NCBI GenBank assembly: GCA_051047955.1
Contig: JBPGPT010000041.1
Span: 1-64,000, forward strand
Length of the DNA: 64,000 nt
Source: Cystobasidiomycetes sp. EMM_F5
Taxonomy: Eukaryota
Direction of reading: 5' to 3'
Positions within the stretch are counted from its first letter, which is position 1. Each line of letters begins with the position of its first letter. Positions 2,193 through 33,731 of the stretch are shown here, one piece after another. A program made the translations under genes and the position numbers. A model generated the notes under the pieces. That model searched no databases. It was not told the DNA's origin and was given only the letters and a program-made list of their open reading frames with translations.

Positions 2193-3917
2193 ATGGTGAG
2201 GTCACACCTTGCGTTGAATCTGCATAAGCTGAGTATAAGGCAGGGCTTGATAGCAGATAGCTCCGTGGTCGTATGGTTTGCGTCATTCGCTATCTCAGTC
2301 AGCTATACTCGGCTTTTCATGCCGTAAGCATGTGCACTAACTGTCCGTTTACAGATCAATGCACTTGTCTGTTTGGTACTCTGCAATCAGTATATTGACA
2401 GGACTTTGGACGATCCGAAGAATGCTATCGGAACGAGCAATATCTTTTACAGCGGTGCGAATACCAACCGCTGGAAGTCGTATGTGCTTGTGCTGATGCC
2501 GGCTTGCTGCGATTCACAGCTGTCTTTGAGAGGTAGGCCGGAATGCGCGTAGTGATGTTGGGGCGGCGCTGATAGGCGCGACTGCTGTTTACCACAAAGA
2601 GGTCTGGCCGGATTTACAATGCTCTTCGCCCTTACCTTTCTCGCGTGGTCATACGTCGACAGCAGACACGCGATGGCACGGAGAAAGCAGAGAAAGGTCG
2701 GTAACATCAGCTTTGCGCGCTTGCAAGGCAATCGTCTGTTCTATCCGCATCGCATACCGGGCGGGACTGCGCCTACCCCACCTCCTGCTGGCGATGTGGA
2801 AGCGCAGACCAAGGCACTGAAGCGGACGCAGCGGGGACGTCGAGCCTTTCTTGCGCTGTCTTCCATCTTTTTGGTAATGTGGGCGGTACCATCGTTGATG
2901 TAAAGCTCATCGATATGAATTGCAACGTCCACTCCTAACGCACACCTGCGCTAACATTGCAGTTTCTTTTGCCAAGGTTGGCTGTTCAAGTATGAAGACA
3001 TTCGAACCGACTCCACTCAGCAGCAGCGACAGGGTGACACTTCGCCGCGCCGAATATGTACACGAGACAGGCACACTGAGGGTTGCGAGCGGATCTATGC
3101 GATGGGCGTCAGTTCGTTCGTCCAATGTGCCTGGCTCATTTTGTGCATCGCGGCTACGTTAATCTCACTATTGTCCAAGTGTAGGTGTATCGAGGCTGTA
3201 CTCTCGAGACGGTACATTGACAGTGTGTCTCATTCGTCTTATTTAGCGCCAGAGACAGGCCTAGCTTGGCAAAGAATTCCTGTTAATCGAAATCGCAGCG
3301 GAGGTCCTGGTTCTGGTCGCGCGGGCAATTCAACCGGTAGCCAGAGTGCCAATCCCAGACCAGGTTCCAGCGCTCGTCCAAACGCTGGAGGCTCACAGAG
3401 CAAGTTCTCCAAGCATCAGTTCATTCGAGACCGCTCTGACCTATCTTCTGTAGGAGCTGCCGCCTCCCCTGCACCGCGAAGAACCTCGCCTGTTGTTGTT
3501 CAAACAGTGCCTGCACAGGATAATCCTTCTGCTGGTCAAGCACAAACAGGCGAGCAGCCTGCGCGTACAGTGACTGGCGGTGTCCCACCGGTGCCACCCG
3601 ATAGCCAACAAGTACCTCTAGCCACTGGTGCGATTGTGAGTAGCCTCATCACTCTGCATTGAGCCGCGCCGCAGTCTCATCTCCGTTCATCTCAGCCTAC
3701 TGCCCAAGCACCCGATGCTTCGGGCGGCGCTCCAGCGGAGTTTATCCCAGGTGGCCTAGGTATAGGCAGAGGTCGAGGCAGGGATGGTACGGACAGGGGT
3801 AGAGGTAGAGGAGCTGGTCCTGGTCCTGGTCCTGGTCCTGGTCTCGGTCCTGGCCGTGGTCCCCCACAATGGCCCAATACTCGACAACGGTCTGCACCTG
3901 CGTCGGTAATCGGGTGA
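2193..3917 (+). CDS. 4-TM membrane protein, paralogue 2; RG/GP-rich tail
   Basis: ATG-only first exon (2193-2195), GT-AG intron, then GLIADSSVVVWFASFAIS; same core as paralogue 1; last exon PTAQAPDASGG...GRGRG...VIG*. Confidence 0.75.
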
Positions 3918-7136: not shown

Positions 7137-8619
7137 ATGGTGTGTTCGTACGTCCTGATACGTCCTCTGCTGACTGATTGGTCCGCACATAGGGTAACGC
7201 CATCGCGGATTCGGCCGTCATATTATGGTTTCTATTTGTTGCCGCTTTTGTGAGTTCTTTTTACCTGCCCAGATCGAATCTGATGCAAAGATGTCACGAC
7301 AGGGCAATGCAATAGCTTGTATCGTCTATTCAAGCCGATATGTGGATGCCAGTATGGATGGCATAAGCCTTGGCACCCCAACCATGTTCTATTCCGCGGT
7401 CTATGTGCGGTATGGTTTTGAAGGTCTACCCGTATTACTCTCATACGCTGAAGTGGTCAATTCCAGAGGACTGGCTGCATTTACCGCCATCGCTGCTTTG
7501 TCCTATCTCATTTGGGTTTGGGCAGACGCTCGAAATATAAGTGCCAAGCGCAAGCAGAGGAAACTTCTTACGTTCAACATGAAACGTTTGCAGAACAGCC
7601 GACTTCATCACTATCGAGCTCCAGAAGAAGGTCAAGACGATCGCACGTATCTCAAGAAGAGTCGATCTAGACGGCGGATTGTGCTCGTGTTCGTTTCGAT
7701 CTTCCTGCTGATGTGGGTCGTGCCATCGGGCATACATTTTGCCCAAGGGGTAAGCACTTAGAGACGAAGCGGAGACGTCTTACATGCGCTGACACACTCG
7801 CAGTGGCAATGGAAGTATTCGACCACGGACGCACAGGAAAAGCCAAAGACCTTCGAGTCTGCGTGTTTATACGACCGCAGGTCCTCCGAGTGCCAGCAGG
7901 TAGTCGAGACGGGCGTCAGCATGACTTTTCAGTGTCTCTGGCTGTTGCTTGCTGCCTTGGTGATCATCATATCACTCATGAGCCAATGTAAGTAACCCCC
8001 ATCCGGAAGACAGCGAGGCTTACAGTGTAAGATGTTTGCAGCGGTGGAACCTTATCCGGTAGATATCGAACGGCTAGGCTCCGGGACCGAAGTATGGGAG
8101 AATGGAAGTAGTTCGTCGTCTTCTGGTTCATCACCTCAGAGGAGAGGCCGATCTCCAGTCCGAAATTCCTCGCCTTTTCCCGGCAGAACAGCCGGCCGGG
8201 CGCAAAGATCTAGAAATCGTCCCGACGGTAAATCGAGGAGGTCTCGCATTGACCGTGACCGTAGATCGCCGAGCCGGAGTCGGCTGAACAATCACGGAAA
8301 CACTTTCGTTAGTCGCATACCCGTGTCTTCGAATCGGGTCAACAATGATGGTTTCGGTGGCCCCACAAACAGTGTCGGTGGCCCTGCAAAGGCCAATTTG
8401 CCGACGGGAAGCCTCAACAAGAATAAGAAGGATAGAAAGGACAAGAAAGTTAACTTTGGTACCGATGCGGGCGGCACGGGCGGAGTTGATACATTCGCCA
8501 GCGGTGGAGCCGGACCTGGCGATGGTGCCCAGAACAACCTGGGTCTGCCTTATCCGGAAGAAGATTTTGTGTTTGGCCCACCACCACCCCAACCCAACAC
8601 GGACAATCCTCGCCCGTAG
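7137..8619 (+). CDS. 4-TM membrane protein, paralogue 4; Ser/Arg/Gly-rich tail
   Basis: TATA-like TATTTATAAAA near 7074; ATG|intron|GNAIADSAVILWFLFVAAF...LGTPTMFYSAVYVRGLAAFTAIAALSYLIWVWADAR...LMWVVPSGIHFAQGW; tail ORF ends 8619. Confidence 0.75.
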
Positions 8620-21982: not shown

Positions 21983-25112
<3,130 letters not shown>

Positions 25113-25389: not shown

Positions 25390-26021
25390 CTCCGCGCATC
25401 ATGCTGCCTGCTTAACGCATACTTGTATTATCCGTCCAAAATCTGAGCATGCGAAAGATAGGCGTCGTTTCCGGCTGACTCCCATATCGACTAATAACAC
25501 AATTGCGGCATTCCATCTGCTTGCTGGTCTATATTTCACTGGGTCTGCCTGACCGCCCTGGTAGACGGATCATTTTTGATTTTACAGACGAACTTCTGCG
25601 GAGAAATCAATGCGAACTACGCTGTGTCAGACTGGGCCCCTACACGAACAAGAGTGTATAAGATGCGCAAAGCCTATCATATCCACAGATCCTGAATCCT
25701 TCACCTCTCGAACAGTCCAGAGTACTTCTTGCCTGTCAGATCTCCCCAATCTCCGAAAGAACAACGGAGAGACGCCCAAGAAGACTCAGCAGAATTACAT
25801 AATGAGCAGCGCGAGCGTTGTCATCACATTCTGAGGATACTTGGACCGTGAATAGCCTGCCTCGTGCGTGCTCCGGCTGTCAAGACGGCATTGCATCACC
25901 TGAAGGCCGCCTCGTACCTTCTATGAAGGACTGCCGCAAATATCATACAGAGCAATGTGAGCGAGTTCTCCGCGGAAAATTGATACTTTGGCCGTGAGTA
26001 GCTTGCTTCGTGCTTGCTCCG
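25390..26021 (+). repeat. ~630-bp duplicated segment, copy A (upstream flank, exon 1 and start of intron 1 of the split tRNA-Ser)
   Basis: Aligns by eye, with scattered substitutions and small indels, to the reverse complement of 31942-32568. Confidence 0.9.
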
Positions 26022-26233
26022 TCCTTTCATCAGTGAAGCTCGGAGTTTGTCAAAGAAGTTTCCTGAGACGTGATTCCGACTCCAGGAGTGGTTAAGGCGT
26101 ACGCCTGCTATTCGTAGCAAGTTCAGTGTATTCCCTCTGGGAGCGAGAGTTCGAAGTAAGCTTCAAAATCCTGTTCGAGCCTGTCTGGATCCGCAAACCT
26201 TACAAATTGCCCATCACAGCCTCTCAGGTGTCA
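25982..26233 (+). tRNA. tRNA-Ser(GCT) interrupted by two spliceosomal-type GT-AG introns (25994-26085, 26156-26219) and one canonical 14-nt tRNA intron (26111-26124)
   Basis: Joining 25982-25993, 26086-26110, 26125-26155 and 26220-26233 gives the 82-nt GATACTTTGGCCGAGTGGTTAAGGCGTACGCCTGCTAAGTGTATTCCCTCTGGGAGCGAGAGTTCGAACCTCTCAGGTGTCA. Acceptor GATACTT/AGGTGTC, D arm GCC/GGC, anticodon stem TACGC/GTGTA, variable arm TCCC/GGGA, T arm GAGAG-TTCGAAC-CTCTC. Confidence 0.88.
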
Positions 26234-26243
26234 CAAACCAAAC

Positions 26244-26268
26244 TTTTTGACGATCTTTGACCCTTTTT
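26244..26268 (+). terminator. Candidate Pol III oligo-T terminators
   Basis: TTTTT at 26244-26248 (10 nt after the tRNA 3' end) and at 26264-26268. Confidence 0.55.
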
Positions 26269-27174
26269 ACCCGCTGGAGCGTTCAAACCCCCAAGCTGTA
26301 CAAATTTTGGGAATATTGCCGGAATTCTCTCGTTTATGAAAAAAAAAAACCCGGGTCATTGTTTAGTACCGCTTTTTCCACCGTGCGGCGTGGTCAGTGT
26401 TGACATACAAAACGACGTCAATAATGCATCCTGTCCATTTCGCTTGAGGTGAGCGGACGACGCAAATTTTTACAACACCCAATTTCCTGCAGGATGAGTC
26501 AATCAAGTCTTAGATGCCTGTGTAGGATAGCACACCATTCATAGGTAAAGACCAGGCACATTGGCAACCCCACAAAGCACCTCAATAACTGTAACGACCG
26601 CGTGGAGGTACGCCCTATTTTACCAGCATATTTGCCTGCCTCTGAAGTTTGCAAGCCTCAATGTCTAGAAGTGAATGGCAGCTGAACTCTGCGAGACCAA
26701 GAGCGGATACCGATACATGGCCTTCTTACAGGCTCTCTGATGTGAATCCCTTGAAAAGAACGGCTTTTCGCGCATGGAGCCTTTAATGGGTCTTCCATTT
26801 AAAAGAGGGATTCCGCTGCACGTATCGCACATAAAAATCGTCAAATTGTTAGCTGTGATGACTATCATATCAGGATCAGCTTCTGCTACGTATGAATGTC
26901 ATCGGCTAGCTGTTGCGTCAGTACAAGGGAATTTCCCGGGATTTATCAGTGCATCATACGTATGCCTGGGAAAGCAGTAGGAAATTTTAGCATATACTCA
27001 GTGCTCAGCCGTTTATTTAATTCGTCATAGCACGAGTAGTCTGGAGCCCGAGTATTCAAACTATAGCAGAAGCAACACTTCAGCTGCCTGTGATTTGATC
27101 AGTGACGGTCGTACACGTGCTTCGTTCAGAAGCCATTCGCAGCGCAACCTTCTTTCTTCAGCACCATAGCAAGC

Positions 27175-28284
27175 ATGTCCACCGACATGGATCCTGTTCT
27201 CGTTGCCAAAGGCAAAGTGCGAGACATCTACAGTACTTCAGACCCGGAGACGCTGCTCTTCGTGGCTAGCGACCGTGTTTCAGCGTTTGACATAATCATG
27301 AAGAATGTGGGCAACAATGGCCGCTCCTTCAGCCGGAGGGAATCTGATTTCAATGCACAGAGCGTACCCAACAAGGGAAAATTGCTGACATCGCTCAGCA
27401 AGTTCTGGTTCGATAAACTCGGTCACATTCTGCAAAATCACTTTATTACGTCCGACTTGGACAAGATGCCGGAGGGTACGAAGCAATGGGGGTTGAGAAA
27501 CAATAAAGACTTGGAAGGACGGACTATGCTAGTCCGCAAGTGTCAGGTCTTGAAATGCGAAGCCATAGTCAGAGGCTATCTTACTGGCAAGTCCTGACAT
27601 TTTGCATTACATCAGGCGCTTACCCTCGCTACTCGATACTATAGGCTCTGCATATAAGGAATATTTACAAAAAGGCAGCGTTCACGGCATCAAATTACCG
27701 CCAGGCTTGAAGGAGTCTGTTAAGCTAGATCCTCCAATATTTACGCCCTCAACCAAGGCAGATGTTGGCGACAAGGATGAGAACGTCCATCCTGATAGGT
27801 GTACATAAAGTCTTTCTATCCGCCTCGTGAACTTATCGCTTACAAGCCTTACTTGACAGTACCGGAATTGCTGGGTCCAGAATACCAAGACTTAGCATTG
27901 TTGTTGGTACAAAAGGCAATTGAGCTATTCTCGACAGGTGCCAAGCACGCAGAGAAAGCTGGCCTCATCCTTGCCGACACAAAATTTGAGTTTGGCGTCC
28001 TTCCTGCCAGTCACTCTGGTCGATTGGAAGACCGCCTTATTCTGATAGACGAGGTGTTGACTCCAGACTCGTCACGGTATTGGGAGGCAAGCGAATGGGC
28101 AGAGGGGAAGACAATGACTGGGCTCGACAAGCAGGCTCTTCGTGAATGGCTGAAAGCAGGTGGCGGTGGGTTTGGAAAAGAAGGCAAAGACAAGGCAGTG
28201 GAGATACCTCAGGATGTGGTAGGGGAGATTTGGCGGAGATATGTAGAGTGCTACGAGCGCATCACAGGCGACAAGTTCACATAG
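27175..28284 (+). CDS. ADE1: SAICAR synthetase (phosphoribosylaminoimidazole-succinocarboxamide synthase)
   Basis: [64 protein letters not shown] and DKQALR. Confidence 0.97.
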
Positions 28285-31941: not shown

Positions 31942-32568
31942 CGGAGCAAGCACGAAGCAAGCTACTCGCAAACAAAGTATCGATTTTCCGCGGAGAACGA
32001 GCTCACATCGCTCTCTATGTTATTTCCGGCAGTCATCCATAGAAGATACGAGGCGGCCTTCAGGTGATGCAATGCCGTCTTGACAGCCGGAGCACGCACG
32101 AGGCAGGCTATTCACGGTCAAAGTATCCCCAGAATGTGATGAAAACGCTCGCGCTACCCATTATGTAATTCTGCTGAGTCTTCTTGGGCGTCTCTCCGTT
32201 GTTCTTTCGGAGATTTGGGGAGATCTGACAGGTAAGATACTCTGGACTGTTCGAGAGGTGAAGGAGTTAAGATCTGCGGATATGATAGGCTTTGCACATC
32301 TTATACACTCTTGTTTGTGTGGGGCCCAGTCTGACACAGCGTAGTTCGCATTGATTTCTCCGCAGAAGTTCGTCTGTAAAATCAAAAATGATCCGTCTAC
32401 CAGGGCGGTCAGGCAGACCCAGTGTAACATAGACCAGCAAGCAGATGGAATACCGGAATTGGTTGATTAGTCGAAATGGGAGTCAGCCAACAACCACGCC
32501 TGTTCACATGCTCAGGTTTTGGACGGATAATACAAGTATGCGTTGAGCAGGCAGCATGGTGCGCGGAG
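31942..32568 (-). repeat. ~630-bp duplicated segment, inverted copy B (contains a degenerate tRNA exon 1)
   Basis: Reverse complement of 25390-26021. It reads GATACTTTGTTT|GCGAGT where copy A has GATACTTTGGCC|GTGAGT, and no downstream tRNA exons are seen. Confidence 0.9.
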
Positions 32569-32798: not shown

Positions 32799-33731
32799 AT
32801 GCTCACATCCATGCTGCTCAAGACGTTGGCTGCTGTTCTGGTATTGGGCGCCGTCGAATCGCTCGCTGCCGAGCTGAGAGGCTCATTGGCTGCCAACGAG
32901 GCAATATCTCGTGAGTCTCAGCCTGTTTTACTCTGAGTTTGCGTTGGATTGAGCAATGTCGGCTGCAGATGCGTTCTTACCGCTGGCTCCGGATTCTGCT
33001 GTTGTATTGAACGGAGGTACATCTGGAAGCGCATTGATAACGATAAACGGGACATTCCGTCTGTAAGGTTGCGGCGGCTGATTCAGGTTGGCGACGCTGA
33101 TCTTAACTTTGATGCGCCAGACGAGATGTTGCCCCCGGAGACTACGTCTTGACCGTGCTCGACAGAGACTACACCTTTCCCACAGTAAGAGACACTGAAA
33201 CATATGCGGTATCGTCAACTAACGCACATTGCAGCTCGCTGTGCACATACCCACAGCCGAGGCAAATGGGGAACCAGAAATGCGGCCTCACACGATGGGC
33301 CGACGACCAACCGACAAATCGCTCATTCAGACTTTGCCGTATCCTCTCGTATTACGACCTCTCAACAAGAAGCAATATTACGAAGAGGCTCGGGTATTCA
33401 GCCCCATCGACATGCTAAAGCAGAACAAGATGATTCTGATGATGGTAGCAGCCGCAGTCTTCGCCTTCGGCATGCCGAAACTGCTAGTCAGTCCGGTTAT
33501 CTTTGCTGCGTTCCGGCACTGATTCTAAATCATCGTTGTCAGGCTATGATTGACCCGGAAGCTTTGAAAGAAGTCCAGGCGAATCAAGCCGAAATGCACA
33601 AGAATCTGCAAAATGTCCAAAATCTAGAGTTTTCTGGCGGATCGCTGGGCAAGTTACTGGCAGGCAGTACTGAGAAGGCCTCAGCACCTACATCGCCGGG
33701 AGGGCCTCAACGCAGACGGAAAGCAGCATGA
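32799..33731 (+). CDS. EMC7: ER membrane protein complex subunit 7
   Basis: Signal peptide, DUF2012-like beta region (YVLTVLDRDYTFP), LPYPLVLRPLNKKQYYEEAR...MLKQNKMILMMV TM segment, MIDPEALKE. Confidence 0.75.

Follow-up and report, generated by a model that had tools for sequence, protein, structure and literature searches.

Results

A serine tRNA gene in pieces

We analysed a 64,000-nucleotide (nt) stretch of DNA from Cystobasidiomycetes sp. EMM_F5 (assembly GCA_051047955.1, contig JBPGPT010000041.1, positions 1 to 64,000), hereafter the window. An initial annotation, made from the letters alone, had described within it a transfer RNA (tRNA) gene for serine, with anticodon GCT, that appeared to be interrupted by introns of the spliceosomal type. 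The putative gene occupies 25982-26233 on the forward strand, as do all of its parts. Exon 1 (25982-25993, 12 nt) supplies tRNA positions 1-12, namely the 5' strand of the acceptor stem, U8, G9 and the 5' strand of the D stem. It is followed by intron 1 (25994-26085, 92 nt), which has edges of the spliceosomal type (GTGAGT...TCCAG) and interrupts the A box and the D arm between positions 12 and 13. Exon 2 (26086-26155, 70 nt) contains a canonical tRNA intron and is accordingly made of two parts: exon 2a (26086-26110), with the D loop, the 5' strand of the anticodon stem and the anticodon GCT (positions 13-37), and exon 2b (26125-26155), with the 3' strand of the anticodon stem, the long variable arm, the 5' strand of the T stem and the T loop up to A59 (positions 38-59). 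The canonical intron between them (26111-26124, 14 nt), placed by ARAGORN at 37/38, is of the endonuclease type and has no GT-AG edges. Intron 2 (26156-26219, 64 nt), again of the spliceosomal type (GTAAGC...CTTAC...CACAG), interrupts the B box and the T loop, and exon 3 (26220-26233, 14 nt) completes the molecule with C60, the 3' strands of the T and acceptor stems and the discriminator A73 (positions 60-73). On re-reading the sequence, we found all exon and intron coordinates of the initial annotation to be correct, as was its placement of intron 1 after position 12; its placement of intron 2 within the T loop could be refined to between positions 59 and 60.

When 25994-26085 and 26156-26219 were removed in silico, ARAGORN called an 82-nt tRNA-Ser(gct) with a 14-nt intron at 37/38, in agreement with the fully paired 82-nt cloverleaf that had been claimed for the GT/AG-joined sequence. 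All stems of the joined tRNA are paired: the acceptor stem over 7 bp (including two G.U pairs), the D stem over 3 bp, the anticodon stem over 5 bp, the variable arm, and the T stem over 5 bp. Exon 3 pairs with exon 2 in the T stem (5/5) and with exon 1 in the acceptor stem (7/7). A class II tRNA-Ser cloverleaf is obtained only once both inserts have been taken out.

Visibility to tRNA scanners and controls for chance

The prediction that standard scanners would miss such a gene was borne out. In the unspliced genomic sequence no tRNA was reported by ARAGORN, with or without its intron option, or by Rfam, either at the gathering threshold or at E <= 10. At the latter setting Rfam returned four weak matches elsewhere in the window, none of them to a tRNA. 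A weak match to the C/D-box small nucleolar RNA model sR38 at 33539-33589 (+; 18 bits, E = 8.9), far under the gathering score, is probably due to chance. Two low-stringency ARAGORN calls, with introns of 1206 and 293 nt, were set aside as implausible.

As a window-wide control, every GT..AG stretch of 40-120 nt was removed in turn on both strands, and pairs of such stretches were removed with a loose filter on the 5' splice site. None of the 38,265 single removals yielded a tRNA. Two of the 6,887 double removals did so, and both lie at this locus: one is the splice proposed initially, and the other uses an acceptor at 26088. We also asked how often flanking DNA supplies fitting end pieces. 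When the 300-nt flanks were shuffled, a 12-mer and a 14-mer able to close the acceptor, D and T stems turned up in 327 of 20,000 trials; with real chunks of the window as flanks, such a pair turned up in 273 of 19,500. Closure together with a GT and an AG beside the pieces was seen in 0 of the 20,000 trials with shuffled flanks. The cloverleaf by itself is weak evidence against chance.

Splice signals of the two inserts

For comparison we used 27 likely protein-gene introns, picked by eye from 149 candidates in the window that join open reading frames, and scored sites with position weight matrices built from them; automatically chosen sets that lacked a branch-site filter were too noisy. The reference introns range from 49 to 85 nt (median 59), begin with GTRRGY and for the most part contain CTGAC or CTAAC. 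The 5' splice sites of both inserts fit GTRNGY, as do those of the reference introns, and both are strong: GTGAGT of intron 1 and GTAAGC of intron 2 each lie at the 74th percentile of the reference set, and in each case no more than 0.7% of the window's GT dinucleotides reach that score. Intron 2 is within the reference range of length (64 nt), and its acceptor lies at the 67th percentile. Intron 1 ends in a tandem acceptor, CAG|GAG, at 26086-26088. The edges of intron 2 cannot slide along the sequence, and those of intron 1 can do so by one base.

Intact homologues

The joined sequence was compared with four intact tRNA-Ser(gct) genes on metagenome contigs (L001-L004). The alignment is gapless, with 62-68 of the 82 positions identical, and columns 8-44, judged by eye, are the same in all five rows. 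Of the 12 nt of exon 1, 11 are identical to the start of the intact L003 gene. The joined tRNA departs from all four homologues at just two positions, one in the variable loop and the discriminator. Taken with the controls for chance, the alignment shows that the three pieces come from a single real tRNA gene. The homologues are the four loci that a looser 21-nt pattern found, every one of them an intact gene. On L001 (160-922), three intact tRNA genes, for Ser(AGA), Ser(GCT) and Ile(AAT), lie within 800 nt, and tRNA-Ser genes can therefore be tightly clustered in the source organisms.

A patchwork of local duplications

The region around the putative gene is a patchwork of duplicated DNA. The stretch 25390-26021 (+) recurs in inverted orientation at 31942-32568 (-), about 6 kb away, as a non-coding segmental duplicate of 633 bp that is 92% identical. 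It takes in the region ahead of the gene and exon 1, continues 28 nt into intron 1 and ends there. By eye, the differences between the two copies mix transitions and transversions and are not obviously the product of repeat-induced point mutation. The 40-mer formed by exon 1 with the 28 nt that follow it in intron 1 is present four times in the window, twice in each segmental duplicate. One copy starts at 25982 (+), ahead of the tRNA body. Copy C (25836-25875, +) is 85% identical to it, has GTGAAT at the place of the splice site and has lost one T from the exon-1 part. Neither of the two copies on the other strand is followed by a tRNA body: copy B (31942-31981, -) is altered at the end of exon 1 and in the GT, and copy D (32088-32127, -) again has GTGAAT. 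Only the one copy of the four that precedes the tRNA body has the GCC strand of the D stem in register beside GTGAGT. The first 28 nt of intron 1 thus recur three times in the window, always joined to exon 1 and never in a gene. The sequence that follows copy C shows no significant similarity to that following the 40-mer (532 of 1000 shuffles were as good), and a simple 146-nt tandem repeat is therefore not the explanation. Intron 1 likewise has no significant homology to the tRNA (577 and 717 of 3000 shuffles as good).

Intron 2 is different. Most of it, at 26173-26215 (+), is a decayed duplicate, here copy b, of the T loop, the 3' strands of the T and acceptor stems, the discriminator (as G) and the trailer of the gene. 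Copy b aligns without gaps to the spliced 3' part and trailer with 29 of 43 positions identical, which none of 2000 shuffles equalled. It holds an uninterrupted B-box-like sequence, GTTCGAGCC, and has lost the T run of the trailer. A further decayed duplicate, copy d (26270-26304, +), lies downstream and covers the variable arm, the T arm, the 3' strand of the acceptor stem and the trailer (no shuffle out of 3000 equalled it, and its tile p against the window is 0.0013). A strict B-box search finds a match in copy d, at 26281-26290, and misses copy b, whose version ends in T, as does the tRNA's own T arm. No other copies of intron 2 were found within the window. About 25 nt of the trailer (26234-26258, +), including TTTGACGAT, recur inverted within 26821-26880 (-), some 600 nt downstream; the recurrence is 76% complementary in one comparison and a gapped match in another, and it could be another remnant of these duplications or a product of chance.

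This patchwork, which the initial annotation had not described, alters our view of how intron 2 probably arose, and with it the reading of the locus as a pseudogene, discussed below, stays alive. Since intron 2 is mostly a copy of its own gene, it was not inserted ready-made. We infer instead that it was born in place, by a duplication of the gene's 3' end inside the gene itself, together with 17 nt that supplied the 5' splice site. If so, the locus would show with unusual clarity how an intron was made from duplicated sequence of the gene that hosts it.

Possible constraint on the exon copy

The three versions of the 3' end can be compared over tRNA positions 53-73. The exon copy has no changes of its own in this interval, while copy b has seven and copy d has six. 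Moreover, the exon copy pairs with exon 1 and the T-stem strand at 12 of 12 positions, and copies b and d do so at 7 of 12 each. Because copy b itself separates exon 2 from exon 3, these differences suggest that the exons remained under constraint when the gene was already split.

Discussion

We suggest that the coding sequence of a nuclear tRNA-Ser(GCU) gene may here be broken by three introns of two kinds, one at 37/38 and two with GT-AG edges, a description that we consider evenly poised between right and wrong. Our best reading, in which we have middling confidence, is that the gene depends on the spliceosome or did so until recently. The fuller proposal is a shade more tentative: that this is a living tRNA-Ser(GCU) gene, whose transcript would need both nuclear splicing systems, and that at least one of its GT-AG introns would have been born from the gene's own 3' end. 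Of the initial claim of spliceosome dependence, what holds up at the level of sequence is the non-canonical position of both inserts, their 5' splice sites and the lack of the motif on which the tRNA endonuclease depends outside 37/38; the branch sites, the acceptor of intron 1 and the failure to find a split relative do not support it. Our main argument for removal of both inserts by the spliceosome is that a strong 5' splice site lying exactly at the junction of the self-derived intron 2 is hard to explain without selection for splicing.

In the pathway that we envisage, a primary transcript spanning at least 25982-26243 would lose the 92-nt and 64-nt introns to the spliceosome, which would join GGCC|GAGT and CGAA|CCTC. 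The tRNA endonuclease and ligase would take out the 14-nt intron, RNase P and RNase Z would trim the ends, CCA would be added, and seryl-tRNA synthetase would charge the product by way of its long variable arm. RNA polymerase III (Pol III) is a possible transcribing enzyme: a terminator-like run of five T (26244-26248, +) lies 10 nt past the 3' end, no run of four T occurs in the 252 nt of 25982-26233, and intron 2 holds the B-box-like copy; the lack of an A-box match at the locus, with up to one mismatch allowed, speaks against it. RNA polymerase II (Pol II), starting in the duplicated upstream block, is possible as well.

Several observations weigh against a working gene, and most of them are what would be expected of a dead, rearranged tRNA-Ser(GCU) pseudogene, in which duplications and insertions, recurring locally in an unstable intergenic region, broke a redundant copy, perhaps one that was once spliced, any transcript would never become a tRNA, and the least-decayed pieces still happen to fit. 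We regard this as unlikely, though it is the main alternative. The surrounding non-coding DNA is prone to duplication and holds at least five partial copies, all decayed, of the gene or of its 5' end. Neither internal promoter box is whole in the DNA: no A box was found at the locus when up to one mismatch was allowed, and intron 2 splits the B box of the gene itself. The discriminator is A73, where all four intact homologues have G73, and the acceptor stem has a U3.G70 wobble, a further deviation from those homologues. In yeast every tRNA-Ser has G73, and a G73A variant of yeast tRNA-Ser nevertheless appeared highly functional and was not mischarged (PMC6827378); we therefore consider A73 unusual, yet not disqualifying. 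None of the four homologues carries any intron, and a search for a split relative, with a pattern demanding AG directly before the D loop, gave no loci in collections of metagenomes, prokaryote genomes and viruses. When the joined 82 nt are folded, the structure of minimum energy is not the cloverleaf, and its energy is ordinary (z = -0.9). Splicing to the second acceptor, 3 nt further on at 26088, also leaves a tRNA-Ser by ARAGORN, with a D loop that lacks GAG. The statement that the inserts look like the protein-gene introns of this genome holds for their GT...AG edges, their strong 5' sites and the length of intron 2; intron 1, at 92 nt, is just longer than the reference maximum of 85 nt and has a weak acceptor, at the 4th percentile and equalled by 38% of all AG. 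The branch sites first put forward, CCTGAG and CCTTAC, are not well supported: they depart from the CTRAY consensus, which would be expected about 10-40 nt before the acceptor, and their scores are matched by 19-31% of random 64-mers. In intron 1 the candidates are TCCGACT, with its A 6 nt before the intron end (4th percentile, equalled by 31% of random 64-mers), and CTGAG, chosen by eye. In intron 2 the candidate is CCTTACA, with its A 17 nt before the end (7th percentile, equalled by 19%). These percentiles are biased against the tRNA introns, because the reference set had itself passed a branch-site filter, and the CTTAC core is also the best branch-site candidate in a picked and likely real intron at 7988-8041.

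The argument from constraint has limits of its own. The chance of zero changes in a named copy is 0.005, and 0.016 for the exon copy against copy d alone, but choosing the best of three copies inflates the test (corrected p <= 0.015), which moreover rests on few sites. Between the exon copy and copy b, the trailer is as similar (15/22) as the tRNA part (14/21), so copy b may simply have diverged fast, its divergence need not measure time, and the argument for selection is weakened; copy b could also have decayed before it arrived in intron 2, which would weaken it further. What speaks for a functional split gene, and against a dead one, is that random breaks would be unlikely to fall at two strong 5' splice sites, each of a quality found in 0.7% of GT, and at both AG, a coincidence that none of the 20,000 shuffles reproduced. 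None of the pieces is truncated or overlaps another, and their order is correct. The cloverleaf has no stem mismatches, whereas each duplicate leaves 5 of 12 positions unpaired, and none of the 13 lineage-specific changes falls in the exon copy. Should the locus be a pseudogene after all, it would be a warning that in-silico splicing can yield perfect-looking tRNAs. Another possibility, which we consider improbable, is that ready-made introns of the spliceosomal type entered a redundant copy, by reverse splicing into an abundant tRNA or a read-through transcript, followed by reverse transcription and recombination, or as mobile elements of the introner kind, and that function was never selected. 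Exact GT...AG edges in the sense direction are the expected trace of such mechanisms, intron 1 has no detectable tRNA homology, reverse splicing is the usual explanation for the introns of U6, U2 and U5 genes, and the abundance of the RNA may be one reason why genes for non-coding RNAs have acquired introns (PMC5855946). However, of the 64 nt of intron 2, 43 were copied from the 3' end and trailer of the gene itself, two independent events would be required in one 82-nt gene, and the window holds no further copies of either intron except the exon-1-bearing 40-mer. It is far less probable still that the inserts are endonuclease-type introns at non-canonical positions, bounded by a bulge-helix-bulge (BHB) motif and cut there, as in Cyanidioschyzon merolae, nucleomorphs and Thermoproteales. 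Genes with several introns, some outside 37/38, are indeed known in archaea and a red alga, but the yeast tRNA endonuclease is confined to cleavage at 37/38 (PMC4033280), and BHB cutting has no need of the strong 5' splice-site hexamers present at both inserts. In a simple test of our own, distinct from the published BHB scanners, four registers were tried for each insert, and none gave a central helix of 4 bp flanked by 3-nt bulges; the best result had 3 of 4 pairs in the central helix and 0 of 4 in both the outer and the inner helix.

A spliceosome-dependent tRNA would have precedents among other stable RNAs. The U6 small nuclear RNA (snRNA) transcript of Schizosaccharomyces pombe is a Pol III product. 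Its gene is likewise that of a small structured RNA, and a GT-AG spliceosomal intron lies within a conserved region of it (Tani and Ohshima 1989, 1991; Frendewey et al. 1990, as cited in PMC5855946), and the B-box-like copy in intron 2 recalls the B-box match in fission-yeast U6 introns announced in the title of Frendewey et al. 1990 (cited in PMC5855946). The U1, U2 and U5 snRNA genes of Rhodotorula hasegawae have spliceosomal introns, and so do ribosomal RNA (rRNA) genes (Takahashi et al. 1993, 1996; Bhattacharya et al. 2000; via PMC5855946), which are again GT-AG introns in fungal stable-RNA genes, outside protein-coding genes. Unlike U6, the host here is a tRNA, two GT-AG introns accompany a canonical tRNA intron, both promoter boxes are split, and splicing is a prediction from the DNA. 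The hosts listed in the part of the U6 review that we drew on are U1, U2, U5, U6 and rRNA, with tRNA not among them (PMC5855946), and the presence of a spliceosomal and an endonuclease-type intron together in one gene would set the locus apart from the snRNA and rRNA cases in that source. Because a tRNA is not a component of the spliceosome, nearness to the catalytic centre cannot account for intron gain here, as it might for U6.

Tandem duplication is thought to underlie permuted tRNA genes. Intron gain through internal tandem duplication has reportedly been described in protein-coding genes, by Rogers in 1989 and by Hellsten et al. in 2011. Intron 2 resembles such introns in that it largely duplicates neighbouring sequence and that its removal restores the original. 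In the simple form of that model the repeat period equals the length of the intron, which here would be 64 nt, and both splice sites come from one duplicated AGGT. In contrast, the duplicate in intron 2 lies 40 nt from exon 3, the 5' site is in 17 nt of other origin, and the host is a tRNA. The tRNA genes of Thermoproteales and C. merolae, like permuted and split tRNA genes, are also hidden from scanners and may have up to three introns, including some in the D and T arms (PMC4033280); those introns are BHB-bounded and cut by the endonuclease, whereas here we see no BHB motif, GT-AG edges and strong 5' sites.

In the portions available to us, a tRNA review (2023), a paper on tRNA intron loss (2025) and a splicing review (2026) all assign tRNA splicing to the endonuclease and not to the spliceosome (PMC12530127, PMC10275265, PMC13149111). 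As far as these portions and that of a 2014 review go, the intron classes are kept apart, spliceosomal introns being given to mRNAs and other Pol II transcripts and to a few snRNA and rRNA genes (PMC12530127, PMC10275265, PMC13149111, PMC4033280). The 2014 review, on tRNA gene diversity, has no word with the stem "spliceosom" in the text available, and the available part of its Table 1 has no such class (PMC4033280). We found no description of a spliceosomal intron in a tRNA gene in the open full-text literature, as far as its texts were accessible and with subscription journals outside the scope of the search, and the initial annotation, which was aware of no earlier spliceosome-dependent tRNA gene, is in that literature uncontradicted. 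If our reading is true, this would be the first tRNA known to rely on the spliceosome and a new kind of host for spliceosomal introns, the separation of the intron classes would be broken, and tRNA sets predicted by scanners could miss working genes. It would also raise the questions of how a gene with split A and B boxes is transcribed, how a tRNA-sized transcript recruits the spliceosome, and how many tRNA genes have been overlooked.

Genomic setting

About 2 kb of non-coding DNA surrounds the locus, with a protein gene on either side. The upstream neighbour, which ends near 25100, is a gene with a glutamine-amidotransferase domain and, from our own reading of its translation, may be asparagine-synthase-like; the downstream neighbour, which starts near 27180, is a SAICAR-synthase gene, an identity confirmed by Protein Atlas. 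No Pfam family was found in the frames 25899-26162 (-), which overlaps the tRNA gene, 25580-25831, 26668-26898 and 26741-26977, which argues that the tRNA pieces are not exons of a recognisable protein gene. Judged by its short introns with CTGAC branch sites and by its gene content, the DNA would look to us like that of a filamentous ascomycete. Elsewhere in the window, two candidate introns at 535-619 and 2879-2962 (+), about 2.3 kb apart, have near-identical starts and tails and similar flanking frames, a likeness that points to a pair of genes produced by tandem duplication close to the window's start.

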